Virus record (IMG/VR): IMGVR_UViG_3300034061_006011
Strand: one strand, 5' to 3'
DNA: 64,000 bases
DNA from: a virus
Lineage: Duplodnaviria > Caudoviricetes
In this document: positions 11,401 through 53,752 of the stretch, in pieces
How positions within the stretch are numbered: position 1 is the first letter of the stretch
Layout: every line of letters begins with the position of its first letter
Notes under the pieces: generated by a model
Database searches by the model: none
Told to the model about the DNA's origin: nothing
Seen by the model: only the letters and a program-made list of their open reading frames with translations
Position numbers and translations under genes: made by a program

Positions 11401-12911
11401 GCTGGTGTAAAGCTTGGTGTTGCTGGTCCTGCTGGTGTAAAGCTTGGTGTTGCTGGTCCTGCTGGTGTAAAGCTTGGCGTTGCTGGTCCTGCTGGTGTTG
11501 CTGGTGTTGCTGGTCCTGCTGGTGTTGCTGGTGTTGCTGGTGTTGCTGGTGTTGCTGGTGTTGCTGGTGTTGCTGGTGTATACGGAGCAGCCTGCGGCGT
11601 ATGCGGTGTTGCTGGTGTTGCTGGTGTTGCTGGTGTTGCTGGTGTTGCTGGTGTTGCTGGTGTTGCTGGTGTTGCTGGTGTTGCTGGTGTTGCTGGTGTT
11701 GCTGGTGTTGGACTGCATTGAGATTGGTAAGTTTCATCAAGAAAACTAGCAGCATCAAAACATTGATCTTCTGCGTTACTGTCACACATAGTCCATGCTA
11801 ATAAAGTACAATCTGCCCAGCTACCAAGAGGAGAAAGACATGTTTCTAAATTTGCACACGCATCAATTTGAATACCATTAGGACAACAAACCATAGCAAT
11901 AATAGTACATTCAACATCATCGGCAGTTTTACATTCACCTGCAATTGCATCCCAATATGGAGGAATTCCTTGATGCCCTCCACCAGTACATCCATTGGTA
12001 CATTTTGCTTCTGCACCCGGAGTGGCAATAAAGCTACCTGAATCTGTTGTGTAACATCCTTGACTTTCACAGCATTCTTGATCTTGACATTGCGGTCCAG
12101 CTTGTGGTGTTGCATTTGGTGTAGCATTTGGTGTAGCATTTGGTGTAGCATTTGGTGTAGCTGGTGTAGCTGGTGTAGCTGGTGTAGCTGGTGGTGGTTG
12201 ACATGATGTTTGGTATGTATCACCCGGATTATCACAAGGACCGCCATCAATTGGACAAGAAACTCCACATTCTTCTGGGCACTCTGCATTTGTTCTTAAC
12301 CAGTTTCCTTCAATGCAAGCATAGTCACAAGAACCACCACAATTACAAGCAAAATGTCTTTTTTCTGATAAACTAGAACATGGTTCTAATTCTCCCGGAC
12401 AATACTCACCACAAGGTGCAGAACTTTGTGGTCCATCTGGACATGCTCCAAATTGCCCCTCACCAATTTGCCAACAACCTACAGGATAAGCTGGACCGCA
12501 AGGAGAGCATGTTTGTTCACAAAAACAACAGACTGTATCTGCTTCTGCACCAACATTTCCCGAAGTGCAATCATAAGCTGGACTACCACCATAAGTTGAA
12601 CTAGGCTGGGTGCAAGTCCCCATCAAACAATCACGAGTTTTGGTCCATGCATATCCACCATTTTGGGATTCGCATTTCCAACCGCAAGTTAGACCAGTTT
12701 CGTTTATCTTACGCACTTCTTCAACATTATTTCCTTTAAAGTTTTCAATATATTTTAATACTTGTTCAGCTTCATCAAATGTTTCATAAGGAGAAGATAA
12801 TATTGATTCACTTTCTTGTAAAGAATTATTATCTTCTAAATAAAGAATATAAAGATCATCATTATTAATGATGATATACCAACCTTTGATGAATTCTGAT
12901 TCTTCAGACAT
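8445..12911 (-). CDS. Fibre/adhesin-like virion protein: Cys-rich modules, TPA mucin-like repeats, anchor module, PKD
   Basis: PKD motif YTWDFGDGS...HTYQNPGIYTVTLTVTN; long TPA/TPSF repeat tracts. Confidence 0.75.
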   Translation of the reverse strand: MSEESEFIKGWYIIINNDDLYILYLEDNNSLQESESILSSPYETFDEAEQVLKYIENFKGNNVEEVRKINETGLTCGWKCESQNGGYAWTKTRDCLMGTCTQPSSTYGGSPAYDCTSGNVGAEADTVCCFCEQTCSPCGPAYPVGCWQIGEGQFGACPDGPQSSAPCGEYCPGELEPCSSLSEKRHFACNCGGSCDYACIEGNWLRTNAECPEECGVSCPIDGGPCDNPGDTYQTSCQPPPATPATPATPATPNATPNATPNATPNATPQAGPQCQDQECCESQGCYTTDSGSFIATPGAEAKCTNGCTGGGHQGIPPYWDAIAGECKTADDVECTIIAMVCCPNGIQIDACANLETCLSPLGSWADCTLLAWTMCDSNAEDQCFDAASFLDETYQSQCSPTPATPATPATPATPATPATPATPATPATPATPATPHTPQAAPYTPATPATPATPATPATPATPAGPATPATPAGPATPSFTPAGPATPSFTPAGPATPSFTPAGPATPSFTPSTPSTPATPATPSTPATPSTPATPATPVCGSCFWQWFQAGGFSYWLLINNSCTTECWCENAQPTYSGDYIGQEATTSCVSRTTPTPSATPATPSFTPATPSFTPAAGPTTPSFTPAAGPTTPSFTPAAGPTTPSFTPAGPTTPSFTPAGPTTPSFTPATPSFTPATPAVGPATPAVGPATPAATPAATPAVGPATPAVGPATPAVGPATPTVTPIPVPAPIPVPTPAPTPTPIPSPIAPTTPIAGPATPLPPIVPVAPVAPEVSAVLPAINFPTQYDSDANLYATKDSLRLMLAQDYNLGDISVVVENNPIMMALFPDAGIITLTENCSEPEFRAISFYYTSKTNTTFEGIKLLDEFVDSYKPKNVTNVTLNVVAQHHNAVKNALKTIQNYVGVANQIATKPLVGTIEQRINYIRSIAYNPKPWFNANATVGIVPLEVYFTDLSFNSGKELRGNDITYTWDFGDGSTKVINYSTKNSSADVTHTYQNPGIYTVTLTVTNEFGTNVSEFPDYINARYEAPDFATIVPELNTYQIEINGQVKTPNNINLYVVVTDNGENAIDPVTEYNWILSDVLSHPNNSYTNISYPIGGVYDLVLQCLTENGSYRITQKANYINVIELKNYYLFTYGANSNYIYANEFGLLSHTFKTTQSTGQEVFINDNFLQGTENDTQAIREFSRNSFSTLNSVYSSGYGGSLLLNYATGRDAVDPVSLEKIISINYNAFNETYNAFNATYRPWNWIAYGFENNIYYLFGNPLTQPAGLSLTNQQILQHDLISNSYSTSTISGIQYLGSSGELKQNPSQFDDGTSLYGYFSVYRTAFNGRNGYILRNSGIGDFFKINSFYKTKEDGVNLIYYFEKLADIAGPEKLEGGLVNLSSGLYFFNNTGSVSAYNPNNAVWQTGGPGINSLAFKGMQDTTKPDYNNPANTLVACSDNDHIAYVSFDYTDNSFIQFSDITLTFSRLPKRVNSSQWHSNIF
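10730..11711 (-). repeat. Intragenic tandem repeats encoding TPA / TPSFTPAGPA / TPAVGPA
   Basis: 11 perfect ACACCAGCA units at 11610-11708 plus larger derived units (for example 30 bp); one Cys-rich module interrupts the tract at about 11135-11290. Confidence 0.95.
12105..12190 (-). repeat. Intragenic TPA/TPNA repeats
   Basis: 9-bp and 12-bp tandem units. Confidence 0.9.
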
Positions 12912-18873: not shown

Positions 18874-20422
18874 AGGTAAAATTAATTCTCGTAGTATCTG
18901 GTCTAATTATTTCAAAATATCTTGCCCTTACAAGCTTTCCGCTATTTTCAGGATCAGAAGTTGTAAAATAAATATCATATCTTCTTGGCTGTTGCATATC
19001 AGACAAAGCCTTAATGACATCAATGTCTCTTAAATTTTGATTGTAATCCCAATTGTTAAGGGAGAAGAAGTTTTGCATTCTTGTTGTTATGTTTGCTCTG
19101 ATGTCGTCTTCAAACTTTTTGTAATATTTATCAATTACAACATTGATAGAAACATCTGAAAGTATTATTTGTCCATCAAGTATTGACAAATAATCTGTCA
19201 TCATCTTGTTTTCATTCATGTATTGTGTAAATTCATATTTGAACTGACTGGAAGAAACAGCTAGATCAAAATTATTAACTTTTGTGAGAATATAAAGTTC
19301 TATGATGTTTGCACTACATCCAGAATGTCTGAGAACTGCATTTGTTTTTCCCATAACACCATTATATGGAGTCACAAACAAATTAGCATAATTTTTATAA
19401 TCAGATCCTGATACACATCTATTTTGTGTTTGGTTGTAAATAGGAAGTTTATATCTAATATCATCTATTGTATCGCCATCGTATCCGTATTCACCTTTTG
19501 TATAATTGGTAAAATTAACAACTGCACTGAAAACTTCGCCTTCAATTGAAACTAATGACTGTGCATTTACAAAATTTGTAACAATATTACCAGAAGTTCC
19601 ACCACCGACTCTATAGGTTGCAACAATAGTTGAACCAGTTGGAGGAATGTATCCAGCACGATTATTGCCAAATATAATGAAAACAGAATAATCAGAATTG
19701 TATTCAACTCTATATTCTCTCTTTGGAGCTGATTCTGTAAAGTATTTTACTTGTTCCCAAGTGACACCGTCAACGCTTACTCTAATTGAATCTAATAGCA
19801 CTGGAGAAAAGTTTAATAAGTAAGCTTGATCTGTTCCACCAGTTCCTGCGAATGTATCTGTGTATGTTCTTCCTTCAATACCAACTATATTGCTATTAAT
19901 TAATGATCCAGATGTTATTACTATGTTTTCATCAAATATTGGTCTTCCCAAAGCATCAGAAGCAAATAATTCAATTGTCGTTGTAACATTATTATTAAAT
20001 ATATCAACAGCATAAGGAGTTTGAATTACAAGATCTACGTTGTATGTGTTTGGAACTCTTGCTGTCCAAAGACTTTTTCCAGCAATAGGTGGTTTTGGAA
20101 CAAATCCTACTAGATTTGCTAGACGTATTGCGTTTTCTAATTCTGTAACTGTGTCAATAAACACTTCATTGGCGATTTGATCTGTCTTGAAGGACAGTGT
20201 ATCAGCAATAAATGCCCAGTTTTCAATAAGCATGATACCAAGACTTGATTCAACAAAGTCATTGAACTCTGTACCAAATTTTTCTTGAATATAAGCAACC
20301 AATCGAGATTTCATTGACCAGAAATCTTGATTGGTGTAATTTAATGAAAAAATTTGAGGTCTTGTGCCATTAGCCCCAGATTTATATGGCGTTAAATCAA
20401 ACGGACACTTCTCCACGGTCAA
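18866..20422 (-). CDS. Baseplate wedge protein (T4 gp6 / Baseplate J-like)
   Basis: DFVESSLGIMLIENWAFIADTLSFKTD...LANLVGF; FGNNRAGYIP; YRVGGGTSGN; RCVSGSDY. Confidence 0.9.
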   Translation of the reverse strand: MTVEKCPFDLTPYKSGANGTRPQIFSLNYTNQDFWSMKSRLVAYIQEKFGTEFNDFVESSLGIMLIENWAFIADTLSFKTDQIANEVFIDTVTELENAIRLANLVGFVPKPPIAGKSLWTARVPNTYNVDLVIQTPYAVDIFNNNVTTTIELFASDALGRPIFDENIVITSGSLINSNIVGIEGRTYTDTFAGTGGTDQAYLLNFSPVLLDSIRVSVDGVTWEQVKYFTESAPKREYRVEYNSDYSVFIIFGNNRAGYIPPTGSTIVATYRVGGGTSGNIVTNFVNAQSLVSIEGEVFSAVVNFTNYTKGEYGYDGDTIDDIRYKLPIYNQTQNRCVSGSDYKNYANLFVTPYNGVMGKTNAVLRHSGCSANIIELYILTKVNNFDLAVSSSQFKYEFTQYMNENKMMTDYLSILDGQIILSDVSINVVIDKYYKKFEDDIRANITTRMQNFFSLNNWDYNQNLRDIDVIKALSDMQQPRRYDIYFTTSDPENSGKLVRARYFEIIRPDTTRINFTYE

Positions 20423-20832
20423 CCCCCTTCGAACGGTACTGCTAGCACAAGTTCTTCAATAATATTTATTTTCTCTGGATTTATATAGTTAATTCGGATC
20501 AATACTCCATTCTTGTTTGTCGAATTATAACCAGCTTCAGTTTTTTCAACCAAATCTGTTACAGTAATTGCTGTTACAGTTATTCTTGGTTCCCAAGTGC
20601 TTATTGAATTAGATATTTCTCCTGCAATAGCACTTTTTGTGGCATCAGTGTTTTGTTCAAAAATATACTTTCTCAAAGCTGTGCCATATTGTGGCAACAT
20701 AACTCTATCACCGGGATTTGTTAATATTAATTGAATCAAATCACTTTTTAAGTTTTTAGCGCCAATTTGAGTATAGAAAAATCCTAATGGATTTTTAAAA
20801 ATTGGAAATGGAAAACCTTTTAAATCAGCCAT
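20419..20832 (-). CDS. Baseplate wedge gp25/GPW-like
   Basis: LIQLILTNPGDRVMLPQYGTALRKYIFE...ISTWEPRI. Confidence 0.92.
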   Translation of the reverse strand: MADLKGFPFPIFKNPLGFFYTQIGAKNLKSDLIQLILTNPGDRVMLPQYGTALRKYIFEQNTDATKSAIAGEISNSISTWEPRITVTAITVTDLVEKTEAGYNSTNKNGVLIRINYINPEKINIIEELVLAVPFEGG

Positions 20833-20834
20833 TA

Positions 20835-23021
20835 TTAATTTCCTTCAAGAGGTAAACCACCAGAACATAAATCTTCTCCCGGCAAACAGTTATCAGTTAT
20901 ATTTAGAGCGCCAAGCCCAATACCACTAGCAGAATTGCTACAAGAAGCATAAACTCTATCACTTGCTCTTACACATCCATTTACTAAAACGAGAACTGGG
21001 AACACACCCGGAATACACTGATCAGGATCTGTTGCTGTAGCATCATCTGTAGCTTGATTCAAATCAATTTGCAAAACATTCTCAGGAGGTGGATTTTCTG
21101 CTTCATCTGGTGGAATTGGTGGATAATCTCTACCAGCTAACAGGTAAATTTTTTCATCAAATTGTATCACATGATTGCCTTTTCCTTTGTGATAAAATGT
21201 CTGTTCTGTATAATCAAACCTATTAGTTGCCACATAATTCATTTTGTGACCTTTTACATATTCAAGAGCGTTTTCTTCAGCATAAAGGAATAGATTCCCA
21301 CCTGATCTTATTTGAATATATCCTGATTCTTCCACGCCTTCAAAACCTTCTCTTAATGTAATTTGATGTGGTCTTGAACCATTTTCTATTGTCTTTTGTG
21401 GCGCAGTAATAGAAATATATTGTCCTAATGTTTTATTTTGATCAGAACTATCATCCATTCTTATGGACAAACCATAACCAGTTCTTAATTGCATATAAGC
21501 AGCGGTTGCTTTTGGTTCTGGAACAGCGCCATCTCTTCTACAAGGATATTCTCTAAGATTTCCTCCATCACAAAGGAAAATTTCATGCTGACTAGTAGAA
21601 TTTATTTTCACACCTTGTTTTGAAGAAGCAGCGTCTGTGCAATTTAGACCATCAACAGCATCACATAAAAATATTTGATTTCCTAAAGCACTTTTTATTT
21701 TTACTCCATTATTATCTGCTCTAACTTTATCTGTGTTTGTTCCAACTCTTTCAATATCATTAAGTTCAATTAAATGTCCAGTTGTTGATTTCCAATAAGA
21801 TCTACCAACAAATTTATCATCACAACCAAAATCAAATGCTCGAATGCTTCTATCCCATTCCATATTGCCTCTTGGCTGATGGACAGAATCATCCATTACA
21901 AAACTGTGACCAGAAATAGAAAGAAACTGTATGCCTGTTTGAGGTAAATCACACTTATTATTTTGTGGAGTTTGTGGACCTTTATATGGTCTGCATTCGC
22001 TTTGTTGTTTGAAAAATGGATTTCTACCAATTTGTGAGTCTGGATTAATTTGACTTTCAGGTTCCCCACCAATTATTGTGGATCTATCATCTGTAGAACA
22101 ACCAACTTCTTCGCTTTTAGCAATGACCGGATTATCTTCATAATCAGGATTAAATAAATCAGATATACTTCCTGCTAAAGGAAAACGTGTAAAATCTTGA
22201 TAAGAAAACGCTTCAGGATTAGGAACTCCTTGAATACAACTAGTATCGCCATCTTTAGCAAAATTTGCACAAGCTGGATGCGCCCACTGACCCCCATAGT
22301 GTAAATGGTCATCTTTAAAGCACATCCAGTTGCCATTGCCGCTCATTATTTCTAATCTTTTCCATTTACGGTTGCAACTAGGATCTCCATCAACCATTTT
22401 CATCATGTGTTTTTCTGGAGTTTTAAAACCATAAATGTTCGGCGTTGTCGTTCTCTTAAGAATATTTGGGTCAGAAATTATTTGTTCAATTGAATCAATG
22501 TCAAATCCATTGTATGATTCTGTGTTCCAAGGAGGCATGACTTGTGATCCATCATTAGCTCCACAAAGATATCCGTTTCTTTTTCCTGCATAAATATCGT
22601 TATATTCTATGATTGGATAGCCAAAATAGTTTAATGCGCCCGGTGCTCTATCTCTTGTCCATGTTGTTCCAATATAATAACCAGCACCATTCATGCCATT
22701 TTCAAAAGCTACAATTATTGTTGAACCAGCAGGAGGAACCCATGATGCTCCACAGTCATCAAATCCACCAAACGAAGATATTGCTGATGCCCAAGGTAAT
22801 CCTTCAATAGGAATAGTTGGCTTATGCAAAATTGGAGAAAAATATTGAACTGCATTTTGTTTCCATACATCATATGTGCTAACGCAAATTGCTGTATAAA
22901 TTCCGTAATTATTAATTGGTTGTACTAAATCGGAAATACGCAACTTGTCTGTCGTATCCCACATCGTAGCAATTAAGTCTTCATGCTCTTGAAGTTTTTT
23001 AACAATATCATCAATTTCCAT
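20835..23021 (-). CDS. Baseplate central spike, gp5/VgrG-like
   Basis: N-terminal OB-fold pattern LPWA...VPPAGSTIIVAFENG...YIG; GH/GN-x-I-x-(M/L)-x-D beta-helix-type repeats. Confidence 0.75.
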   Translation of the reverse strand: MEIDDIVKKLQEHEDLIATMWDTTDKLRISDLVQPINNYGIYTAICVSTYDVWKQNAVQYFSPILHKPTIPIEGLPWASAISSFGGFDDCGASWVPPAGSTIIVAFENGMNGAGYYIGTTWTRDRAPGALNYFGYPIIEYNDIYAGKRNGYLCGANDGSQVMPPWNTESYNGFDIDSIEQIISDPNILKRTTTPNIYGFKTPEKHMMKMVDGDPSCNRKWKRLEIMSGNGNWMCFKDDHLHYGGQWAHPACANFAKDGDTSCIQGVPNPEAFSYQDFTRFPLAGSISDLFNPDYEDNPVIAKSEEVGCSTDDRSTIIGGEPESQINPDSQIGRNPFFKQQSECRPYKGPQTPQNNKCDLPQTGIQFLSISGHSFVMDDSVHQPRGNMEWDRSIRAFDFGCDDKFVGRSYWKSTTGHLIELNDIERVGTNTDKVRADNNGVKIKSALGNQIFLCDAVDGLNCTDAASSKQGVKINSTSQHEIFLCDGGNLREYPCRRDGAVPEPKATAAYMQLRTGYGLSIRMDDSSDQNKTLGQYISITAPQKTIENGSRPHQITLREGFEGVEESGYIQIRSGGNLFLYAEENALEYVKGHKMNYVATNRFDYTEQTFYHKGKGNHVIQFDEKIYLLAGRDYPPIPPDEAENPPPENVLQIDLNQATDDATATDPDQCIPGVFPVLVLVNGCVRASDRVYASCSNSASGIGLGALNITDNCLPGEDLCSGGLPLEGN

Positions 23022-23034
23022 ACAAATTACCTTC

Positions 23035-24699
23035 TTATGATTTTAAAGCTCTATTATTCTGTTCCACACCAGTTAATTTCAATTTAGTAATCCATTTACC
23101 ATCTGATAATTCATGATCACAACCATTTATCAAAAAAGCAATAGATGATATCTGATCATTTATTGTTGGCAGAGAAAGCCAGACACCATTGATTTTACCA
23201 TTATCAAAAAGATCTGACTGAATAACTGTGAATGGGTTTATAAATATTATTTTTATAAAAGACCCTATAATGTTCCAAGACCAAAGAAATCTTGGATCAC
23301 CTTGTATTGTCAAATCTGCTGTAACAGCTCCCAACATCGGTTTAGAAAAATTTCCAGCTTCAAGATGTAAAGATGCCGCTTCTGCTGTTTTTTGTCCTAT
23401 TTCTGCCGGTGGAGAAGACTCTCTATTATTAGAAGTAGCTGCTCCAGCAACTACAGTTTCTTTTCCCGGTTCATTGTTAGTTGCAGAATTTTGATTGCAA
23501 CCTTGTATAATTACAGATTTTGAGCTATTTGCTCCACCCGGAGCAGCGCCAACAAATCTGTTTGGAACACCAACAAATTCTATTTTTGGGGAAAATGATA
23601 TTACAGGACTTAAGTCGCCACCGTTAACAACATATGTCCCTACAAATTGTTTTATTTTACAGCTTCTATATTTTGTTCTGTCAATTAAACATTCAGTACT
23701 TTCCGCTTCTACTAAATATAAACATTCGTCATTTGCTCCACTTGGATAACATAAAAACACACCTTTTGTATGATCTGTTACAAAATTATTTAAATTTTTT
23801 GCTATAGCGTCAAGCACAGGTAAGTTATAACCGGGATAAACACCACTTCTTCCTGCATTAGTATCAGCATTTTTTTGTTTTGCATAAGACCAACCACCAT
23901 TTTGACCTTGCGGTTGTCTTACCAACGCTATTCTGCTTCCTTGTTTTGGAGCATTTGTTGGTTTTGGAGGACATGTTCCATCTTGCATCAGTTCAAAAGA
24001 TGTTAATATAGGAATTTTTTGAGAAGATTTTCCCAGAACATTTTGAGTTCTTCTTTGACCCATTTTGGCATCTGGTCCTTTTAATTCTAGTTTATATTTC
24101 CAAATGTTATTATCAAAAGTTACATCTATTTTTGTAACAAGGAAATCAATATAAGGTCCAATCGGTTTTCCCGGCAAAGACTGTTTATCTACAAAACTTT
24201 GTTGATAAATTGCGTTACCACCATTCTTGTTGGTGAAAACATACCCAAAATTAAGAGAAACTTTAATAATATCAGTATTTTTAACGCCTCTTCTAGGTGT
24301 GGCATCACAACGATCTCTATAAACAGAATTATAAAAACTTGTGAAATCCTGACCAGATGTATCAATTATTTCTAATGTTGCACCGTAACTTTGTGATATA
24401 CCCATGCTGGCAGATTTAATGAAAGCTCTTTTGTCTCTATCTGTTCCTAAAAAGTTTCCTGTTGTTATATAATAAGAAACATATCCATTATTATTTTGCT
24501 GTCTAAAATTAGCTTGATTTTCCCTTATTATTCTGAATCTAGCTTCTATAAACGGCGCATAACTTTCATATGATGCGTTTGGAGACAAACCATTTTGACC
24601 CGTATCGGGTAATGGTCGTCTTATATTTCCGCATGTATTGTAATTTTTACCATTTACTATAAATGACGGCAGTGATGGATATTTTAAATTAATAGGCAT
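23035..24699 (-). CDS. Baseplate hub protein (gp27/GPD-like)
   Basis: Lies between LysM and spike genes; ADLTIQGDP...FLINGCDHELSDGKWITKLKL C-terminus. Confidence 0.6.
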   Translation of the reverse strand: MPINLKYPSLPSFIVNGKNYNTCGNIRRPLPDTGQNGLSPNASYESYAPFIEARFRIIRENQANFRQQNNNGYVSYYITTGNFLGTDRDKRAFIKSASMGISQSYGATLEIIDTSGQDFTSFYNSVYRDRCDATPRRGVKNTDIIKVSLNFGYVFTNKNGGNAIYQQSFVDKQSLPGKPIGPYIDFLVTKIDVTFDNNIWKYKLELKGPDAKMGQRRTQNVLGKSSQKIPILTSFELMQDGTCPPKPTNAPKQGSRIALVRQPQGQNGGWSYAKQKNADTNAGRSGVYPGYNLPVLDAIAKNLNNFVTDHTKGVFLCYPSGANDECLYLVEAESTECLIDRTKYRSCKIKQFVGTYVVNGGDLSPVISFSPKIEFVGVPNRFVGAAPGGANSSKSVIIQGCNQNSATNNEPGKETVVAGAATSNNRESSPPAEIGQKTAEAASLHLEAGNFSKPMLGAVTADLTIQGDPRFLWSWNIIGSFIKIIFINPFTVIQSDLFDNGKINGVWLSLPTINDQISSIAFLINGCDHELSDGKWITKLKLTGVEQNNRALKS

Positions 24700-24700
24700 A

Positions 24701-25027
24701 TTACTGGTTATTTATTGGTATCCTAATTGTTTTACCTGCAATAAAATCTTTTATGTCATATATATTGTTGGCTTGCATAATTAACCACCAAGAATCTGGA
24801 TACCCATAAACGCTATTTGATACAAGATCTGGTCTATACGCATAACCTTCTGGAATGACTGTATACTTGTCAAATTGGTTTGCTGGTATCTCCGTTCTTT
24901 TGTAAGTGCTAAATGTTAATTTTTCTTCATCACCATAGACTAAAACAGTTGAATCTTTATATCTTGATAAAGAATTTACATAACTAGAAGCTTTTGCTGT
25001 TTCTGAAACTGATATTTGATACGCCAT
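24701..25027 (-). CDS. LysM-type baseplate wedge protein (gp53-like); start revised to MAYQ
   Basis: YAYRPDLVSNSVYGYPDSWWLIMQANNI; GGAG RBS; starts 1 nt after the upstream TGA. Confidence 0.85.
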   Translation of the reverse strand: MAYQISVSETAKASSYVNSLSRYKDSTVLVYGDEEKLTFSTYKRTEIPANQFDKYTVIPEGYAYRPDLVSNSVYGYPDSWWLIMQANNIYDIKDFIAGKTIRIPINNQ

Positions 25028-25028
25028 A

Positions 25029-25580
25029 TCATGCTCCCAATTGAATAATTCTATCTGCTCCGGGTAAATATCTACTGTCGTAAACAATTTCAAAATTCAA
25101 ATCTACATCAAGCTTATAAGGAAGATATTTACCATTTGCACTATTTACATTCCACACTTGATCAGATGGAAATGATACACTATAACTCAATAACACAACT
25201 GTAACTTCTGTATCAGCTATTAAACTGCCACATTTAATGCTTAATATTTTAGGTGGAATATAAGGAATAATATTATTAGGGTCTGCTCTAGGATAAACAC
25301 AAGATTCTAAATTTCTCAAATTTAATATATTTTGATTAATTGAATTCTGATCATATGAAATAAAATGACATTTCCATCCTATTTTTCTAGATCCACCAGA
25401 ATTAAACGTCTTAAATGGTGTTGATCTACCCATACCAGTTTCTTCAGCATAACCAGCATCTTTACTGTCTGTTATATCTGGTAAGTTGTTCATGAAAATC
25501 TGGAAAGTATTTGAACGAATATAGCAATCAGCAATATCGTTCAATGCTCCCGTTGGTCCTGTTGCTCTTCCTTCTGACAT
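25029..25580 (-). CDS. Tail tube initiator (gp48/gp54, P2 gpU-like)
   Basis: YAEETGMGRSTPFKTFNSGGSRKI...LRNLESCVYP...PPKIL; directly after the tape measure. Confidence 0.7.
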   Translation of the reverse strand: MSEGRATGPTGALNDIADCYIRSNTFQIFMNNLPDITDSKDAGYAEETGMGRSTPFKTFNSGGSRKIGWKCHFISYDQNSINQNILNLRNLESCVYPRADPNNIIPYIPPKILSIKCGSLIADTEVTVVLLSYSVSFPSDQVWNVNSANGKYLPYKLDVDLNFEIVYDSRYLPGADRIIQLGA

Positions 25581-25613
25581 TTTTAAATTCCCTCAATATA
25601 ATTAAATTAGTTA

Positions 25614-32507
<6,894 letters not shown>

Positions 32508-32508
32508 G

Positions 32509-33006
32509 TTAAACCTTTTTTATCATATCACTAACAGAGGCATTTACTAAATTCGAAATTTGACTTTTAATGTTATCTCTAATTGCTTCTGATTCTTGCG
32601 GATCTAAAGCTCTTGCACTACCCATTGCATTTAAAATCAAATTGCAATCTAGAATCTTTAGACTTTTCAGTCCACCTCTCTTATAAGTTCTGTAAGCACT
32701 AATTATATATTTATAAGATTTAACATTTTGATAATTAAAATCAGGACGACACGCATTTATTCCACTTCCTTGTAAAATAAATTTGACATCATTAAATGTT
32801 AAATAATGTAAGTTCAATCCACTTATGTAGTTATTGCTAACATTTGTTAAAATAACTAAAGGATAAACATCATGTTTTGCAAAAGAATATTGAAATGTTA
32901 CCAAAGCTCCACGAGAAACAGTTTTTAACGAAGGACCATATTGATTAGATCTTACGTTGTTGGTAACAAGATCTTTAAATAAACTACCATAAGTGTTACG
33001 AGCCAT
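32509..33006 (-). CDS. DNA end protector, T4 gp2-like
   Basis: FQYSFAKHDVYPLVIL...ISGLNLHYL matches the gp2 D.(F/Y)PL...G.NLHYL pattern. Confidence 0.65.
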   Translation of the reverse strand: MARNTYGSLFKDLVTNNVRSNQYGPSLKTVSRGALVTFQYSFAKHDVYPLVILTNVSNNYISGLNLHYLTFNDVKFILQGSGINACRPDFNYQNVKSYKYIISAYRTYKRGGLKSLKILDCNLILNAMGSARALDPQESEAIRDNIKSQISNLVNASVSDMIKKV

Positions 33007-34384
33007 TCATCTTCTCTTTAATGGATTTATCTAATAGCATTTTCTTTGTATTATTAATTTCATCATAATCAGGAACTCTTCCAAGTAACTTAGTGTAAGA
33101 TGGGTTAGGACGTGTTTCTCCCATACTTCCGCCAACAAATTTCTTTGTTACATCAGAATAATCTTGCTTGAATACCTTCTTATAAAGGTCTCCCTTACCA
33201 AACAAATTTAGGAAATCAAGAATTTTGGAATGAGGAAGTCTGCTTGGCTTAGTAAGTAAATCATGAATTAAACTTGTTTCATGATTCCTTCCAGAACACC
33301 ATTGCCCAAGCTTCATAAAATTACCTATTTCTTCCACATCTCCTTTTGGATAACCTTGAGCTAAAAGGAGATTCTTAACCATTTCGACATCGTTGTTGTG
33401 CAACAAATATGCAGTTGTAAGAATTTTGTTATTAGGAAGATCGTTTATGATTTCTGTAATGTGACAATTTGGGAAAATTTTCTGTAATAAATTTATTTGT
33501 TTTAAATTTTTAAGAAATTGAGTTGGTGAAACATCTTGGTTATCAATACTTGCCAAGTAATAAGATTTAAGTATTTTCCCGTCATATTTTGCATCAACAT
33601 GTGTTTTCTTTAATACGTCAGCAAATTTTTCTGGGAAATTTTTCTGAGAAGAAAATCTACAAGCAAGATTTGCAATTCTAAAAGGAAGATAAATATCTCT
33701 TTTGAATGCTGTTTCTGGCAGCTCTATTGTAACAATTTCTCCTGTTTTGAGGTCATGGGCACCACCGACTGGATCAATTAATTCACCATTGTCTCCATCT
33801 GAACTTTTAAGTTTTAGATATAAAGCATTCATGGTGATGTCTCTTGTGTGAGCATCTTCTTCAATGTTTGTTGTAAATCTTGCTTCTGTTGGTGAAAGCA
33901 TTCTATTTTTTGTATTTTTATTCATTGTGGCAATGTGTGCTTTTTGCATGCCTTTTTGGACAGTTATTTCAATTGGATGATTTTTTTGATCAAATCTAGA
34001 TGGATAAAATACAAATTCTTTTTGATCAAATTGACCATGACCACTTACTTTTTTAATTGGTGTTTCTGAATTTTTCAGTATTAATATTATTTCATCAGGA
34101 GTTGCATCTGTGACTATATCAAAATTTTTGTATGTTTTACCTTTCAAATGATCTCTTAATGCTCCACCAGTCAAGTAAATTGACTTCCTTTTCATTGTTG
34201 GTTTAATCATTCCTTTACTTTTATCCATAGTGGTGTAACCAAGATGGACTTTATCGCTATTTTCAAAAGCATCTATAATAGGCTTTAGGAGAGAATTGAC
34301 AGTTGAATTTACTTTCAACGGTCTAAAATTGATTGATTCCTTGCTGTCTTTCAAGCGTATTTTAGATAAAATCTGTTCGCTCAT
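32996..34384 (-). CDS. Class II tRNA nucleotidyltransferase/poly(A) polymerase-like protein with degenerate catalytic motifs
   Basis: GGALRD...KNFDIVTDATPDEI; EEDAHTRDITMNAL; LIDPVGGAHDL. Confidence 0.85.
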   Translation of the reverse strand: MSEQILSKIRLKDSKESINFRPLKVNSTVNSLLKPIIDAFENSDKVHLGYTTMDKSKGMIKPTMKRKSIYLTGGALRDHLKGKTYKNFDIVTDATPDEIILILKNSETPIKKVSGHGQFDQKEFVFYPSRFDQKNHPIEITVQKGMQKAHIATMNKNTKNRMLSPTEARFTTNIEEDAHTRDITMNALYLKLKSSDGDNGELIDPVGGAHDLKTGEIVTIELPETAFKRDIYLPFRIANLACRFSSQKNFPEKFADVLKKTHVDAKYDGKILKSYYLASIDNQDVSPTQFLKNLKQINLLQKIFPNCHITEIINDLPNNKILTTAYLLHNNDVEMVKNLLLAQGYPKGDVEEIGNFMKLGQWCSGRNHETSLIHDLLTKPSRLPHSKILDFLNLFGKGDLYKKVFKQDYSDVTKKFVGGSMGETRPNPSYTKLLGRVPDYDEINNTKKMLLDKSIKEKMNGS

Positions 34385-34770
34385 TATTGTTTAACCCCTA
34401 AAATGTATAAAATGTATGCTATTAAAACTGGTATGCTGATATTATAAATAATAACTGCAATATTTTTAATTTGGTTTTCTGTACCAGATTTAAATCTTTT
34501 TAAATCGTGTATAAAAGTTTCTAAATCAAAAGCTCTATTGTTAACTTCTTCAATGCTAGCATCAATTTCTTCAAACTTATTTTCAAAAATCATGATCTTT
34601 GTTTGCATTTCTATATTTTTTTCAATAATCTTTTCAAATTTATCGTAAATTTTTTCTTGATTCTCAAGTAGAATTTTAACTCTTTCATCAATTCTTGAGG
34701 TCATGTCGTAAAGTATCTTTACTCTAGACTCAAGTTCTTCATCAGCAGTTAATTTTCTTGCATTTACCAT
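34384..34770 (-). CDS. Coiled-coil protein with C-terminal transmembrane helix (holin/XhlA-like architecture)
   Basis: Heptad repeats then IAVIIYNISIPVLIAYILYILGV; TAAATA-N4-ATG. Confidence 0.6.
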   Translation of the reverse strand: MVNARKLTADEELESRVKILYDMTSRIDERVKILLENQEKIYDKFEKIIEKNIEMQTKIMIFENKFEEIDASIEEVNNRAFDLETFIHDLKRFKSGTENQIKNIAVIIYNISIPVLIAYILYILGVKQ

Positions 34771-34801
34771 TAATACTATTTAGAATTTCATACATAAAAA
34801 T

Positions 34802-34831
34802 AAAAAAAGAACCCCAATTTAAATGGGGTTC
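34802..34831 (-). terminator. Rho-independent terminator
   Basis: GAACCCC stem followed by a 7-T run on the minus strand, downstream of the small ORF. Confidence 0.7.
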
Positions 34832-34859
34832 TATAAAAATATAATTTTTATTTAACTTT

Positions 34860-34982
34860 TTAATTAATTTTCTTATTCGGAAAATTGCCAGTAATATAAC
34901 CAATTGCTAATGTAGCACCTATTGCAGGATTCATGACACTTACTGTACCAGCAATAAGCCACCAACAAGCGTTATTAAACAT
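34860..34982 (-). CDS. 40-aa hydrophobic peptide (not in ORF track)
   Basis: MFNNACWWLIAGTVSVMNPAIGATLAIGYITGNFPNKKIN; promoter upstream and terminator downstream. Confidence 0.55.
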   Translation of the reverse strand: MFNNACWWLIAGTVSVMNPAIGATLAIGYITGNFPNKKIN

Positions 34983-35045
34983 GATCGTCTACCTTCTACA
35001 AAAAATGTGGATCTACATGTCACCTTTATTCAAGTTGACTCCTTA

Positions 35046-35073
35046 ATTATAGCATGTCACGCAAGAAAGTCAA
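35046..35073 (-). promoter_or_regulatory. Sigma70-type promoter
   Basis: TTGACT-N16-TATAAT with TGC extended -10. Confidence 0.6.
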
Positions 35074-35161
35074 AAAAATTTCATCGTTTTTTTTACTATA
35101 TAAGTGATTGGGGTATTTACCCCTAATCTTAAAAAGGCTGGGGTTCATACCCTGAAAAATT

Positions 35162-35590
35162 ATGAGTGACCAATCAATTATTCCGCCGCTTCCAATTGTT
35201 ATGCCTGAGAACAATCAAAGTTCACCAGTTTCTGATAATGATCTTCTCGATATATATAATGAAATATTAGATGATCTAAGAAATGACAGAAAGGAAGTAG
35301 ATTCAATTTTAGCTAACTTTGTTGAAATGGTCATGAACGAAGGCGATTCTACTTCATCAAGCAAAGAAGCATTAGTTAATTTGGCAAAATTAAAATCAGA
35401 TATCGCAATAGGAAAGACTAAAATTGCCGATCTTATGACATCTTTGAAACTTAAAGAAAAGCAAGGATCAAAAATTCAAGCAACACAAAACAATAATATA
35501 ACGATAACTGATAGAAGAAATTTGATTGATACCATAAATAAATTAACGAATAAGAAGGAAGCAAAAAATGCCGAATTTGATCAATCTTGA
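35162..35590 (+). CDS. Hypothetical helical protein
   Basis: 142-aa ORF, first of a plus-strand operon. Confidence 0.7.
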   Translation: MSDQSIIPPLPIVMPENNQSSPVSDNDLLDIYNEILDDLRNDRKEVDSILANFVEMVMNEGDSTSSSKEALVNLAKLKSDIAIGKTKIADLMTSLKLKEKQGSKIQATQNNNITITDRRNLIDTINKLTNKKEAKNAEFDQS

Positions 35591-36842
35591 AAGCTGGTTG
35601 TTAAAAGAACAAGAAAACCCAGCACCGGGACCGGAAGCATTGGCTGGATCAGATCCTTCCAGTCTTCCTCCCGAATCGTTTAATAAAACAACTCAGGTAA
35701 GTGTTCCACAGCAAAATCAGCCTATGGATCAACCAACTGCTAATCTTGAAGAACCTAAATCACCAGACATGCCCAAAAGCAAAGACGTGTCTGATTTTAG
35801 TTCATGGAAGAATAAATTCTTCAAAGAAAGTATTAAAAACGATCCCAACACATTATTACAAATGATAAATTCTATAAGAGATGGAGAATTATCTTCTTAT
35901 CAGAAAAAGTTTGTAGAAGACAATTTGCAAATTGTCTTCCTAAGACAAAATGCAAATATTAATAAAGCATCTGGAGAAATGAGAAAGAAAATACGAGATG
36001 ACTTGGATATGGCTAATCCCGGCACATCTCTTGCAAATCACTTTTCTTCTGTTCTAAGCACAATGCCAGAACTTATTAATACTTTTATAAGAATTTCTGG
36101 ACTGGGAAGTAACAAAGCTGATCTTCATAGAAAGTATATTGCATCTCTGATCGGAGCAATTCAAGTTGGATCTGGAGCACAACAAGAAGATATTATTTAC
36201 AACGAAAAAACATTTTCAATTAGAATTTCTACTAGATTTAATAGTAAATTTGGTTTGATTGATGTTGGTCGCTGGACCCTTCAACAAGATGATCCACAGA
36301 AGTATTTGGCTGAACCAGAATTAGAAAAATTAGACTCTGGAGCACCTGAAGAAAAAAGAGTTTTAAGGCATAGAATTATTGTTGAATCAATAGCAAACTC
36401 TTTTGAGAAGAGAGTTTTTGTGACCAATGTGCTTGCTGATAATGGCACTGTTTACTTTGTTGGAATGGATCTGTCAAATATTCTTAGAAGTGGATATGAC
36501 AACGGTGTTTTCAATGTTCAATCATATCAAAATGATGCATCAGAAGCATTATTTGATACAGATGGTAATTTGGTAACACTTCAAGATATAAAAATTCAGT
36601 ATGAAAAAGAAAGTGGAGAAATGGATGAGAACGGTAGTCCTGTGAAAGATAGGACTGAATTCTTAGTCAAGAAGGATGGTATTTTATTCATCAATGCTTC
36701 TCTTGAAACATTGATGGATGCTGCTGGCAATGTCAATGGATTAAATGTCAAAGAATTACCATTTAATGGCAATCCAAGTGATTTGGTTAGTCTAACACGT
36801 TGTGTTCCTTCAGCACCTGAAATTATTTTAAGGAACTGTTGA
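35568..36842 (+). CDS. Hypothetical protein, possible internal head protein
   Basis: 424 aa; N-terminus NLESWLLKE followed by a P/Q-rich linker. Confidence 0.7.
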   Translation: MPNLINLESWLLKEQENPAPGPEALAGSDPSSLPPESFNKTTQVSVPQQNQPMDQPTANLEEPKSPDMPKSKDVSDFSSWKNKFFKESIKNDPNTLLQMINSIRDGELSSYQKKFVEDNLQIVFLRQNANINKASGEMRKKIRDDLDMANPGTSLANHFSSVLSTMPELINTFIRISGLGSNKADLHRKYIASLIGAIQVGSGAQQEDIIYNEKTFSIRISTRFNSKFGLIDVGRWTLQQDDPQKYLAEPELEKLDSGAPEEKRVLRHRIIVESIANSFEKRVFVTNVLADNGTVYFVGMDLSNILRSGYDNGVFNVQSYQNDASEALFDTDGNLVTLQDIKIQYEKESGEMDENGSPVKDRTEFLVKKDGILFINASLETLMDAAGNVNGLNVKELPFNGNPSDLVSLTRCVPSAPEIILRNC

Positions 36843-36843
36843 T

Positions 36844-37347
36844 ATGATATTATTCAATGAATATGTTAACAGGCATCATTTTATGGCGAAGAAAAGACTT
36901 CGCCTATTGAGGCGTGTATTAGAAAAAGACGGTCTTGAAGTTGAAGATTTTACTCATGATAATCAAGACCCTTATATATTTGTTTATTCCTATCCAGTAT
37001 CCACTACGTTCCAAGGTGTAAGATTTTACATGCATGGAGAAATATTAGCTTTCAGGACACAAAAGAAGCCCGAAACGCAACCATACGGCGAAGCTTACGA
37101 ACTTGATGTACAAACAATGTTGGTTGATGTATTTGAAACAGAAGATGACAAATCTGAAAAGCATATTACGAAAATTTTGATGAAGTTGATTAGCAGAGAA
37201 GTTAGAAATCATTTTAAGAAAGAAAAGGTTGCAGAAGAAGAATTATTGACAGGACAGATCAGTAATGCTAAAGATGCAGCTGGACAGATAGTGATTAGAA
37301 ACACAGGAACTGATTACAGTAACACGGTGTTCAGTAAATTCAATTAA
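36844..37347 (+). CDS. Hypothetical protein
   Basis: 167 aa; begins MILFNEYV. Confidence 0.7.
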   Translation: MILFNEYVNRHHFMAKKRLRLLRRVLEKDGLEVEDFTHDNQDPYIFVYSYPVSTTFQGVRFYMHGEILAFRTQKKPETQPYGEAYELDVQTMLVDVFETEDDKSEKHITKILMKLISREVRNHFKKEKVAEEELLTGQISNAKDAAGQIVIRNTGTDYSNTVFSKFN

Positions 37348-37355
37348 GGTGAGAA

Positions 37356-38213
37356 ATGATAAACTTTTTTGATTTTATTAATGAATCAATTCTTGGGAAA
37401 AAGCTTGATGATTTTTTATCAAGCTTTCCTTTTTCAAATAATACAATAATTGTTTTTGATGTTGAGACAACTGGATTTAATCCTCGTTTACCACATGTTC
37501 AAATTACAGAACTTTCTGCCATTCCTGTTGATTTAAAAACTGGCGATCTTGGAGATCCTTTCGTTAGAAATATCAAATTAAATCCTGAAACATTAAAGAA
37601 AATGGAACATGAGAAAGAAAACCCTGTTGTTCAAAAATCAAGAGTAATGTCAGTTGCGGATGTGTTAAAGTTTCAATCATACGATATTGAGTCGTCCACA
37701 CATGATGAAGTTGATGCTGCTGTTGATTTTAAGAATTATGTTGAGTCACATTCAAATGTAATTATGGTTGCTCACAATGCAACATTTGATATGAGTTTTA
37801 TTAATGGTTTATTGCAGAGAGAAGGGATTGATAGAATCAAAAGACCTGTTATTGATACTTTCAAGCTTGCCAAAGTTTATTTAGAACCAATTTTAAACAT
37901 TATGGCATCTGGTGGAGATGCTGCTGGTTTAGCTATTTTGGAGAAACTGAAAGATAAATCTGGATATGTTAGAACAACATTATCATCTTTAGGATCAGCA
38001 TTTGGAGTTGCAACGCAAGGCAGTCATGTGGCAATTAATGATGTAATACAAACTGCAATTTTGCTTAAGAAAATTATTGAATTTATACAGGAACATTACC
38101 ACAAATTGGATCAAGAAGTGGTTCAGTCAGCTTTTGATTCATCCAAACGAAATTGGCAAAAATTTAAAAAGAAAGTTAATCTTCAAAGAAGAGGAATTGA
38201 ACTAAAAAAATAA
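37356..38213 (+). CDS. DEDDh 3'-5' exonuclease (DnaQ-like)
   Basis: VFDVETTG, AHNATFD, SHVAINDV motifs intact. Confidence 0.9.
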   Translation: MINFFDFINESILGKKLDDFLSSFPFSNNTIIVFDVETTGFNPRLPHVQITELSAIPVDLKTGDLGDPFVRNIKLNPETLKKMEHEKENPVVQKSRVMSVADVLKFQSYDIESSTHDEVDAAVDFKNYVESHSNVIMVAHNATFDMSFINGLLQREGIDRIKRPVIDTFKLAKVYLEPILNIMASGGDAAGLAILEKLKDKSGYVRTTLSSLGSAFGVATQGSHVAINDVIQTAILLKKIIEFIQEHYHKLDQEVVQSAFDSSKRNWQKFKKKVNLQRRGIELKK

Positions 38214-38228
38214 ATTTAAGGTAAATTT

Positions 38229-39137
38229 GTGATAAAAATATTAAGAGAAAATTCTTGTTACGAAATAAATAATAATATTCCTTTAGAATATCGTGCTCCT
38301 AAAGAAATTCTTTTAACTGGAGGAATTGGCGATTTAATTGCACTTGATAGTCATTTCCCAAGAATTTGGCATTTTTCTGTTGAAAAAATTGTTTTAGCAA
38401 CAAGGGTCGCCGATTTTGTTTTTAGTTTATACAAAAATAAACTTTTTGGTTTTAAGAATGCAAAAGTAGAAATTATTCGCACAAACTATGCTGATCCAAT
38501 TCATAATATTAATGAGTTAAGAAGAAAAACTAATTATAAAAATTCTCCTAATCTTTTAGATTGTAGCATAGCAAAAATATTTCCATTTATTAATAGAAAT
38601 CAGCTTCCTTATTTCAAAAGTTCTCTTTTTAATATTGAACAAAATTTGGATAAGTTTAATTTGCCAGAAAAATATATTGTTATTTGTCCTATTACAAATC
38701 ACGATAGTATTTGCTCTCGCTCTGGCTCAAATTTAATTCCCAAAAGACCACCAAGGAATTTTGAGAGTGAAGAATTAGAAGCAATAAATTTATTTTTAAA
38801 TAATAAAAAAATTAAAGGAGTTGTTTTGCATAATGATAAGATTGAAAATTTAGATGAAAATAATATAATTAATTTAACTGGTGAAACAAAATTCATAGAG
38901 AGCATAGGCATTATTAATAATGCATCTGGTTTTATAAGTATAGATTCTTGTTTAGCTGTTTTGGCTTGCCAAATATTTAACAAAAATGAAATATTAATTA
39001 AATCAAATAATAAACAATATTATGACAATATAAAACCATATACAAATCCTTTAAATACAAATGAAATGATTGTAAGAAATATTTGTGAAAATAATTTTAT
39101 TTATAAAAAGAGAAATGGACTAATAATAGTTCGATGA
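38229..39137 (+). CDS. GT9-like glycosyltransferase
   Basis: GGIGDLIAL; NLTGETKFIESIGIINNASGFISIDSCLAVLA. Confidence 0.75.
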   Translation: MIKILRENSCYEINNNIPLEYRAPKEILLTGGIGDLIALDSHFPRIWHFSVEKIVLATRVADFVFSLYKNKLFGFKNAKVEIIRTNYADPIHNINELRRKTNYKNSPNLLDCSIAKIFPFINRNQLPYFKSSLFNIEQNLDKFNLPEKYIVICPITNHDSICSRSGSNLIPKRPPRNFESEELEAINLFLNNKKIKGVVLHNDKIENLDENNIINLTGETKFIESIGIINNASGFISIDSCLAVLACQIFNKNEILIKSNNKQYYDNIKPYTNPLNTNEMIVRNICENNFIYKKRNGLIIVR

Positions 39138-39985
39138 TAAAATTAAAACATTGTAATTTTAACAGTTGGTATAATTGTTTGCAAAATAAAGAATTTATTT
39201 ATTCAAACGAAGGAATCGGAGATACAGTTATTAGTGTAAATTTCGCCAAACATAGAAATACAGGAATAATAAGATATTACGACAATGATTATAGAAATAA
39301 ATTTATTGATGAATATTGTAAATTAATCGGTGTTTCCTATTACTTGATTGATAGAAAAGAAACTGATGCAATAATAAAAAATAATAATTATAAAAAAATA
39401 TATCAATTTAATTTTCATAATCATTACAACATACCAAACAAAGACGAAATAATGAGTAGCATTTACATGATGAATCATGGATTCATTAAACAAAATGATT
39501 GCGATCCAAACACAATTTTTATTTGTCCTATGGGATCAACTAATATCGATATGAGAAATAGAAGATTTATGGATAAAAATTATTTTTATCCAATGGTTGA
39601 AAATTTAATAAGAAAAAACAATAAAATATATTTTGTTGGAATAGAAAAAGATATACAAGAGTACGGATTTATAGATGGAACTAAATGGATTAATACAAAT
39701 TATATTATTCATAATTCAAATGACAAAGAAAAAATAAATATTTCTACTTTTTTACAAATGGTTGCAAATGCTAAATTAGCAATTGCTGCACCAACATCGT
39801 TTCCATTAATTTCTTCAATGTTTGCTATTCCGACACTAACTCTGCATAGATACAATGCTTCCAATCACCCAGTGACAAGTAATGGAAACGATAATTTTCA
39901 TTATCATTTTTATAATACAAAATGGTATAAAACTTTAAGAATGGTTTCTTACCAAGAAATAATCTCTCATATAGACAATATGTAA
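39134..39985 (+). CDS. Divergent GT9-like glycosyltransferase
   Basis: EGIGDTVIS; IFICPMGS; FLQMVANAKLAIAAPTSFPLIS. Confidence 0.55.
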   Translation: MIKLKHCNFNSWYNCLQNKEFIYSNEGIGDTVISVNFAKHRNTGIIRYYDNDYRNKFIDEYCKLIGVSYYLIDRKETDAIIKNNNYKKIYQFNFHNHYNIPNKDEIMSSIYMMNHGFIKQNDCDPNTIFICPMGSTNIDMRNRRFMDKNYFYPMVENLIRKNNKIYFVGIEKDIQEYGFIDGTKWINTNYIIHNSNDKEKINISTFLQMVANAKLAIAAPTSFPLISSMFAIPTLTLHRYNASNHPVTSNGNDNFHYHFYNTKWYKTLRMVSYQEIISHIDNM

Positions 39986-40002
39986 ATCAAGAAAGGTCTG
40001 TA

Positions 40003-52888: not shown

Positions 52889-53752
52889 ATGATAAGCTTT
52901 ATTGAATATCTTGCAGAAGCTACTACTAATAATAACGACAAAATAAAAATTGTTGTTTTTCAGGGAAGCCCCAGAACAAAAGATTCTTGTTCTGGTGGAG
53001 ACAGTAAAACAAGTTTCTTAATGAACAAAGCAATAAAAGAAATAACAGAAGATGTCAAATTTACAATTGTTGATTTAAAAGTAATGAATGACGATCCACA
53101 AGTTCGTCCATGCAAAGGATGTGTTGGAACCAGTAATGGATTCCAATGCCATTACCCATGTGATTGTTATGCCAAAGATGATGGAACAAATGATCTCATG
53201 TCTGAAGAAGACGTTTATAAAAAAATGGAAGAAGCAGACGGATTTGTTGTTTTTACACCTGTTTATTGGTCAGGTCCATCCAGTCAAGTCAAATCATTGT
53301 TCGACAGACTTGTTTGCGTTAGTTTAACATTATCTGTCGAAGATGCGAAAAAGATTTATGGTAAAGATGTTAAAGATCCCAAGAAAACAATAGCAGCAGA
53401 ACAAAGTGGAAAATATCGTGATCTTTTAAAAAATCATTATGAGGGTAAAGTTGGAGCATTTTTCATACATGGAGACGATGGCGCAAATGATTATGTTGGG
53501 CGCAAGATGCCATTAGCTATGGCTGATTCTAAACCACAAGACTATATCAGCCCAAAAGAAGCTATTATGCCTATTGTTAATCAGTGTCGCTATAGTGGCA
53601 TTTTTGTTCCAGAAAATTGTATAGAAGGAAATGTTTTTGGATATAAAGAAAAATATAGTCAAAATAATATTGATGTTCGTAAAAGTGATTTAATTGACAA
53701 ATCAATTAAACTAATTAAAAATCTAATTAAAGAAATTAAGAAACGAAGATAG
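52889..53752 (+). CDS. NAD(P)H-dependent FMN reductase / iron-sulfur flavoprotein-like
   Basis: QGSPR...SKT; PCKGC...CHYPCDC; ADGFVVFTPVYWSGPSSQVKSLFDRL. Confidence 0.88.
   Translation: MISFIEYLAEATTNNNDKIKIVVFQGSPRTKDSCSGGDSKTSFLMNKAIKEITEDVKFTIVDLKVMNDDPQVRPCKGCVGTSNGFQCHYPCDCYAKDDGTNDLMSEEDVYKKMEEADGFVVFTPVYWSGPSSQVKSLFDRLVCVSLTLSVEDAKKIYGKDVKDPKKTIAAEQSGKYRDLLKNHYEGKVGAFFIHGDDGANDYVGRKMPLAMADSKPQDYISPKEAIMPIVNQCRYSGIFVPENCIEGNVFGYKEKYSQNNIDVRKSDLIDKSIKLIKNLIKEIKKRR

Follow-up and report, generated by a model that had tools for sequence, protein, structure and literature searches.

A stretch of 64,000 nucleotides (nt) of the IMG/VR virus record IMGVR_UViG_3300034061_006011 (Caudoviricetes), belonging to a giant, T4-like phage from a lake and called the window throughout, carries a gene for a protein of 462 amino acids (aa), P0001, which combines the complete predicted fold of a class II CCA-adding enzyme with replaced residues in the motifs that define these enzymes. 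Class II CCA-adding enzymes serve as textbook cases of polymerisation templated by a protein, with five motifs that are regarded as nearly invariant. P0001 belongs to a large family under selection that keeps the whole fold with its motif residues replaced and that appears to have arisen from intact phage enzymes probably travelling inside the capsid. The explanation favoured here, tentatively and with somewhat less than even confidence, is that P0001 is a non-polymerising binder of a nucleic-acid 3′ end or of tRNA, derived from a CCA enzyme that was delivered with the phage head. The gene and the part of its product that is specific to the family are located as follows.

32996-34384, minus strand: P0001, class II nucleotidyltransferase-fold protein of 462 aa, a CCA-enzyme homolog with replaced motifs (identified by reading frame and translation, PF01743 and structural model).
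34187-34384, minus strand: family-specific N-terminal extension, aa 1-66, defined by conservation within the family.

The P0001 gene is an intact open reading frame (ORF) with an ATG start. Its description as an intact CCA-enzyme homolog with replaced motifs, given in an initial annotation of the DNA, is confirmed by the ORF, the domain match and the fold. The head domain PF01743 (PolyA_pol head) was detected with 79.6 bits at a gathering cut-off of 23 (E = 3.2e-22), and the protein also matches the PHROG family 'tRNA nucleotidyltransferase'. An AlphaFold2 model computed with 79 homologs in the alignment has a mean predicted local distance difference test value (pLDDT) of 93. This model aligns with human TRNT1 (4x4w) at Z 24.3 over 360 residues, spanning residues 8-454, and with bacterial CCA enzymes and PcnB at Z 20-22 across residues 5-460; more than 25 CCA and PcnB structures match it at Z 18-24. 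Since the structural alignment spans nearly all of P0001, the head, neck, body and tail domains are all present in the model, which thus has the whole architecture of a class II tRNA nucleotidyltransferase. Domain match and fold together place P0001 structurally in the class II tRNA nucleotidyltransferase/poly(A) polymerase superfamily. Its scores against all NCBIfam CCA and PcnB models are far under the cut-offs, for example 65.6 against a cut-off of 305.65 for the pcnB equivalog TIGR01942 and 60.2 against 290 for CCA. P0001 is basic, with an isoelectric point (pI) of 9.3 and a net charge of +14, and the family median pI is 8.3 compared with 6.4 in canonical relatives. Near-invariant positions in or near the N-terminal extension are F20, P22, L33, A39, F40, G49, Y50, T52, K55, G58, P62, K65 and K67, and a DGxNxEL insertion is a second feature of the family's own. 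With regard to expression, two 151-nt contigs from one metatranscriptome run cover the P0001 gene, which could be DNA carry-over, and matches to the TATAAATA late promoter within the window are no commoner than expected by chance.

The replaced residues lie in the catalytic and substrate-recognising segments, which are listed here, together with Glu139, in the order of the protein.

34106-34168, minus strand: motif A, aa 73-93, reading GGALRDHL...K-N87-F-D89 at the canonical DxD; the first catalytic Asp is replaced by Asn.
33967-33969, minus strand: Glu139 on strand beta-4, kept in 109 of 121 family members and hydrophobic in catalytically intact sisters.
33908-33946, minus strand: strand beta-5 and BxA region, aa 147-159; His150 stands at the third-carboxylate position, N155 and N157 replace basic-x-acidic, and K159 is invariant.
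33818-33862, minus strand: motif B, aa 175-189, EEDAHTRDITMNALY; DxxRRD reads D-A-H-T-R-D, with the first Arg of RRD replaced by Thr.
33674-33700, minus strand: position of motif D, aa 229-237, reading RDIYLPFRI instead of EDxxRxLR; the templating Arg is replaced by Leu233.

The reading KNFD, with Asn in place of the first Asp of DxD, was correct, and the codon of Asn87 is AAT at 34124-34126. Among 121 homologs position 87 is occupied by N (90), E (9), S (7), G (4), T (3), D (3) or H (2), and A also occurs. The sequence HIATMN (aa 150-155) had been assigned to the third carboxylate, and this holds: a profile alignment to 6ibp sets it against the canonical E-I-A-T-F-R, an alignment with sister phage enzymes sets it against their EFEIATFRK, and therefore His150 takes the third-carboxylate position. 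Across the family this position varies widely (H 24, Y 24, E 20, F 15, D 13, N 8, S 6). A pairwise phmmer alignment with E. coli PcnB had instead offered Glu139 as the third carboxylate; it was rejected as a register slip on three grounds, the tight beta-4/beta-5 hairpin of the model, the x-I-A-T match with the sister enzymes and the profile alignment. Glu139 itself may be a relocated carboxylate.

The segments that handle substrates are altered as well. The BxA motif, which positions the primer (PMC2910056) and is canonically R-x-E, reads N155-K-N157 in P0001 and has S or N followed by N, S or H in the family. The residues EDAHTRD are present as first described, but their label as base-selecting was wrong, since motif B (DxxRRD) recognises the ribose (PMC2910056). 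Its position 180, the first Arg of RRD, is N in 58, T in 36, S in 18, G in 7 and A in 2 of the 121 proteins and R in none. The sequence DIYLPFRIANL is likewise present, and it is this stretch that holds the real base template, motif D (EDxxR), the amino-acid template for CTP and ATP (PMC11784652). Motif D of P0001 reads R229-D230-I-Y-L233, and position 233 is T in 61 and L in 48 proteins of the family, I in 7, also V or M, and never R. Around the replaced residues GGxxRDHL, D89, K159, D177, R181, D182, N186, Y189 and DPxGG are strongly conserved. To judge from these alignments, P0001 lacks the canonical two-metal and C/A-template site, which makes ordinary CCA or poly(A) addition unlikely.

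In a word-indexed protein search 127 homologs were found, of which about 120 are full-length; they are 31-96% identical to P0001, and each contains PF01743. All 127 come from metagenomes, and the family is confined to uncultured large phages, giant ones of the T4-like kind. The same motif replacements recur across the approximately 120 full-length homologs, and an exhaustive search revealed a continuum from the family to ordinary enzymes. A megablast search of positions 20000-40000 of the window against cultured and deposited phages gave no match, and tblastn against deposited phages gave a single full-length relative, located in an unannotated 595-kb uncultured phage. The pairwise ratio of non-synonymous to synonymous substitution rates (dN/dS) in the close clade is 0.05-0.15; dS is saturated, and therefore the true ratio lies below these values. 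In contigs from independent lake-water metagenomes 14 differences were found in the P0001 gene, of which 13 are synonymous, with no insertions or deletions (indels). Neutral decay, for which a dN/dS near 1 and frameshifts had been named as signs, is thus not what the gene shows. With about 120 intact homologs, a dN/dS of at most 0.15 and nearly all strain differences synonymous, sequence comparison excludes gene decay and indicates a family under strong purifying selection.

Many relatives of P0001 start with a short leader of the pattern M..F..Y..L(R/K)E and continue with a linker that is acidic or rich in Gly; this arrangement was found in 51 of 80 IMG/VR loci and in about 70 of 123 family proteins. 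The leader comprises 10-13 residues, with aromatics three apart and a hydrophobic-x-Glu site, and its layout fits the T4 capsid-targeting sequence (CTS), in which positions 4 and 7 serve targeting and processing requires positions 8 and 10 (PMC9026906). Leader-type matches number 115 in the family loci compared with about 28 expected, roughly half of them on genes unrelated to P0001, and several proteins in the window also begin with such a leader. The window encodes a protease of the kind that would cut off capsid-targeting leaders:

56918-57562, minus strand: T4 gp21-type prohead protease (PF03420, E = 7.7e-26).

The Gp23 capsid protein (7.9e-87) and Portal_T4 (2.5e-73) are found in the same window. 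Taken together, the leader on most relatives probably loads the protein into the phage head. The suggestion that P0001 is a virion component gains indirect support from the leader-bearing loci and the gp21-type protease, but P0001 itself is without the leader.

Further observations were made on head genes and leaders in the window. The T4-type portal gene (59795-62308, minus strand) is interrupted by an intein splicing domain (PF14890, 2.4e-13, residues 120-336). An RNase T/DEDD-type 3′-5′ exonuclease (37356-38213, plus strand; PF00929 3.4e-9, Rv2179c-like 3.8e-7) starts with the capsid-tag-like MINFFDFINE and was found in none of 84 related neighbourhoods. An FMN reductase-type protein (52889-53752, plus strand; PF03358, 2.5e-15) starts with MISFIEYLAE, which closely resembles the T4 CTS.

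A tree of 96 proteins was calculated with FastTree, with local supports only and midpoint rooting. The variant family containing P0001 forms one clade with 100% local support, sister to the leader-bearing and fully canonical enzymes P0129 and P0130, within a larger clade of leader-bearing phage homologs. The basal branches of the variant clade bear the leader; it is missing from the 13-row subclade that holds P0001 (support 93) as well as from P0127 and P0128 in its sister group. Since the basal branches carry it, the leader was probably lost secondarily in the P0001 subclade, a polarity that depends on the midpoint rooting. To explain this tree, the motif set must have switched between canonical and degenerate at least nine times. 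Other leader-bearing lineages have degenerated differently, with DYH, EFH, KYH, NFN or NIE in place of DxD; the independently degenerate leader-bearing homologs are P0135, P0142, P0143, P0145, P0150, P0153, P0160, P0163, P0165 and P0167. The number of switches thus suggests that catalysis was repeatedly dispensable among these phage homologs.

According to the favoured explanation, the ancestor would have been a catalytically active CCA enzyme with a T4-type capsid-targeting leader, packed into the head and leaving it together with the DNA on ejection. The variant family would have kept the scaffold that holds nucleic acid and lost the chemistry, so that the protein would bind a 3′ end on a helical stem, such as a tRNA acceptor end or similar, and add no nucleotides. 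In most relatives the protein would be head cargo; in the phage of P0001 the leader would have been lost, and delivery by the particle is uncertain. Loss of polymerisation with a retained binding scaffold is favoured because position 150 is free, position 87 is variable, five elements were lost together and degeneration occurred repeatedly and independently.

Several points weigh against a non-polymerising binder. The N-terminus of P0001 (MSEQIL, then a conserved SKIRL) contains no capsid-targeting leader. Binding of tRNA or RNA ends and a decoy role, both suggested in the initial annotation, are hypothetical, and a stoichiometric tRNA shield is hard to reconcile with delivery in few copies, since so little of a binder could not protect the tRNA pool of the cell. 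The absence of polymerisation is read from sequence, and the conserved surroundings of the pocket could equally be those of a ligand pocket that still works. Glu139, found in the family only and situated on the strand beside the lost third carboxylate, could rebuild a metal site. The variant is present in all of five large related genomes, and in four of these it is the only PF01743 homolog, which would suit a working enzyme. Two near-complete related genomes contain 59 and 46 tRNA matches, and in the tRNA-rich regions L095, L096 and L097 of three related genomes of 340-533 kb none of 101 tRNA genes encodes CCA. Nearly all of these 101 genes have discriminator-C-T (N73-C74-T75) after the acceptor stem.

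These points lead to the main rival, possible though on balance doubtful, namely that P0001 is still an enzyme with a rewired site (Asn87, Asp89, Glu139 and further conserved acidic residues) that acts on another substrate or by another chemistry. Such an enzyme might complete the N73-C74 ends of CCA-less phage tRNAs, add another nucleotide or carry out transfer to a non-tRNA target. Beyond the conserved pocket, the widely shared Glu139 and the many CCA-less tRNA genes, it is favoured by the nature of the replacements, which are specific polar residues (N, S, T) and not random ones, and by the presence of a second, canonical CCA enzyme in only one of the five large genomes. This second enzyme, encoded at L085:1387-2622 in a genome of 381 kb, has every canonical motif intact (DVD, EIATFRTE, RRD, EDKLR) and starts with the capsid-tag-like MNFKQWLLTEE. 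However, an unconstrained position 150 and a position 87 that takes E, S, G, T, H or A in some lineages are unlike a conserved metal ligand, and Glu139 lies one strand farther from the DxD strand than the canonical Glu. Moreover, the templating Arg, the ribose-reading Arg and BxA were lost jointly, and several leader-bearing lineages degenerated independently and in different ways, which fits a relaxed catalytic need better than one new chemistry. As to the tRNA genes themselves, the discriminator bases of almost all the 101 genes with C74-T match bacterial identity rules, C74-T looks like a uniform 3′-processing signal, and the window contains no tRNA gene.

The genes around P0001 were compared in 84 loci fetched through P0001 homologs (27-70% identity, contigs up to 670 kb). 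As the P0001-family gene itself served to gather these loci, the counts describe linkage and not universality. The following features of the window were considered.

25614-32507, minus strand: giant protein of 2297 aa, whose gene follows the gp2-like gene wherever both were found (77 of 84 loci).
32509-33006, minus strand: homolog of the gp2-like 'DNA end protector', 165 aa (PHROG 429, E = 1.1e-9).
34384-34770, minus strand: coiled-coil protein of 128 aa with a C-terminal hydrophobic helix; a homolog lies directly upstream in at least 39 of 84 loci.
35162-37347, plus strand: divergent conserved three-gene block (142, 424 and 167 aa), adjoining the P0001-family gene in all 84 loci.
35568-36842, plus strand: 424-aa neighbour whose N-terminus is leader-like (MPNLINLESWLLKE) and is followed by some 60 residues of disordered, Pro-rich linker and then a folded domain.
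36844-37347, plus strand: 167-aa neighbour, with the capsid-tag-like family start M(K)xFLEFVDRKxRE.

The stop of the 128-aa gene overlaps the start of the P0001 gene by 1 nt (34384), and the gp2-like gene overlaps its 3′ end by 11 nt (32996-33006). The coupling to the gp2-like gene that had been noted before is therefore real, but the name 'tape measure' for the giant protein finds no backing, as this protein has no significant Pfam or PHROG match. The term 'tail operon' was too narrow, the conserved partners being the three-gene block together with the gp2-like and giant genes. In the clade of the window the gp2-like and giant genes were relocated directly downstream of the P0001-family gene, which accounts for the overlap seen here. 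A complex prediction for the P0001-family and gp2-like proteins gave a score of 0.00 at a mark of 0.32 and weighs neither way.

Within the three-gene block, the 424-aa protein is more conserved than the P0001 family (mean column identity 57%) and has no sequence match in the PDB and no Foldseek match at E ≤0.001. Its domain gave weak restriction-endonuclease-like rows in VIA (3ndh at Z 6.9 over 179 residues, BglI at Z 6.3), and its Atlas feature neighbours are SmaI, Eco47II and ThaI at about 0.8; this weak likeness to restriction endonucleases is a lead and not an assignment. The 167-aa protein of the window reads MILFNEYVNR, without the Glu of the family start, and has no sequence match in the PDB. 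Just before the operon holding the P0001 gene lies a hydrophobic ORF of 40 aa (34860-34982, minus strand), with a near-consensus sigma-70-like promoter upstream (35073-35046, 11 of 12 matches with TG) and a terminator-like hairpin downstream (34832-34808). Directly downstream of the P0001-family gene, several related phages (L030 and L042-L044 at 11404-11997, L080 at 11686-12192) encode a protein of the HAD type (DFDGTLF, about 197 aa) that starts with a capsid-tag-like leader.

A more specific and speculative proposal can be made, which is unlikely as it stands. The CCA fold without its chemistry could constitute a new internal or ejected protein that clamps a nucleic-acid 3′ end; this could be the end of the genome that leads during injection, beside the gp2-like protector, or a tRNA-like end targeted by host defences; the repeated loss of catalysis would then reflect selection for holding ends and not for extending them.

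A role in the particle that involves no tRNA, with the fold serving in the head or neck or alongside the gp2-like protein in capping the 3′ end of the packaged genome, was judged improbable. The invariable linkage to a conserved block in the structural region speaks for it, as do the gp2-like and giant genes lying at most 10 kb away in 80 and 77 of the 84 loci, the overlap with the gp2-like gene in the window, the head-targeting leader on most relatives and the basic character of P0001; in addition, a duplex end with a 3′ tail may resemble the acceptor-stem substrate of CCA enzymes. However, T4-like genomes mix enzyme genes into structural clusters, so that position is weak evidence, and the tRNA-gripping body and tail domains are retained and conserved. 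Much less credible is the view that P0001 works normally, adding CCA or poly(A) in spite of its substitutions. The clear homology, the full-length fold and the annotation of homologs in other phages as tRNA nucleotidyltransferase would agree with it, but the five defining motifs are not matched, the NCBIfam scores are far too low, and the D and R of EDxxR were reported as irreplaceable, since no replacement of either survived selection for CCA or A addition (PMC11784652). That P0001 is a decaying gene remnant, as the lost catalytic residues might suggest, is practically precluded by the intact homologs, the low dN/dS, the synonymous differences and the absence of indels described above.

If P0001 is a binder, as favoured here, it would be the first class II pseudo-CCA enzyme known to us and would add a novel type to the internal proteins of phages; should it be active, the CCA-enzyme fold would prove able to use a differently built active site. 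Either outcome bears on the handling of tRNA ends and on host tRNA-targeting defences in giant phages with dozens of CCA-less tRNA genes. P0001, a leader-bearing variant and a leader-bearing canonical sister form a concrete, expressible set of proteins for testing.

Compared with known systems, P0001 has the same four-domain layout over its full length as the class II CCA enzymes of human (TRNT1, 4x4w), Geobacillus stearothermophilus (1miv) and Thermotoga maritima (3h37), with Z 20-24. Common to P0001 and these enzymes are the GGxxRD loop, the second Asp of DxD, the D..RD..TxNA core of motif B, the DPxGG hairpin and the D of motif D. In contrast, the first and third carboxylates, BxA, the first Arg of RRD and the Arg of EDxxR are replaced in the P0001 family, which adds the conserved 66-residue N-terminal extension and the DGxNxEL insertion. 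Among solved structures the best sequence match of the head domain is E. coli PcnB (3aqk, 3aql), with E = 6e-12 for P0001 alone and 5e-25 with the family profile; unlike P0001, PcnB keeps every catalytic motif. In the pseudo-nucleotidyltransferases Utp22/Nrap (class I CCA-like) and MiD51 the fold is kept for binding without the catalytic carboxylates, but these proteins belong to unrelated lineages and have eukaryotic cellular roles, unlike the P0001 family. To our knowledge, no class II (bacterial-type) or phage example of a pseudo-nucleotidyltransferase has been described. Most members of the P0001 family start like the CTS-bearing internal head proteins IPI-III and Alt of phage T4, from which packaging of these members is inferred, whereas P0001 has no such leader. 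Nearest on the tree are the intact phage CCA enzymes with a capsid-targeting-like leader (P0129, P0134, P0151, P0152 and L085:1387-2622), which share the signature RDHL...TDATP(D/S)E with the family and bear the same type of leader as most of its members. These enzymes keep DxD, E-I-A-T-F-R, RRD and EDxxR, whereas the P0001 family has lost all four, and the P0001 subclade the leader as well.

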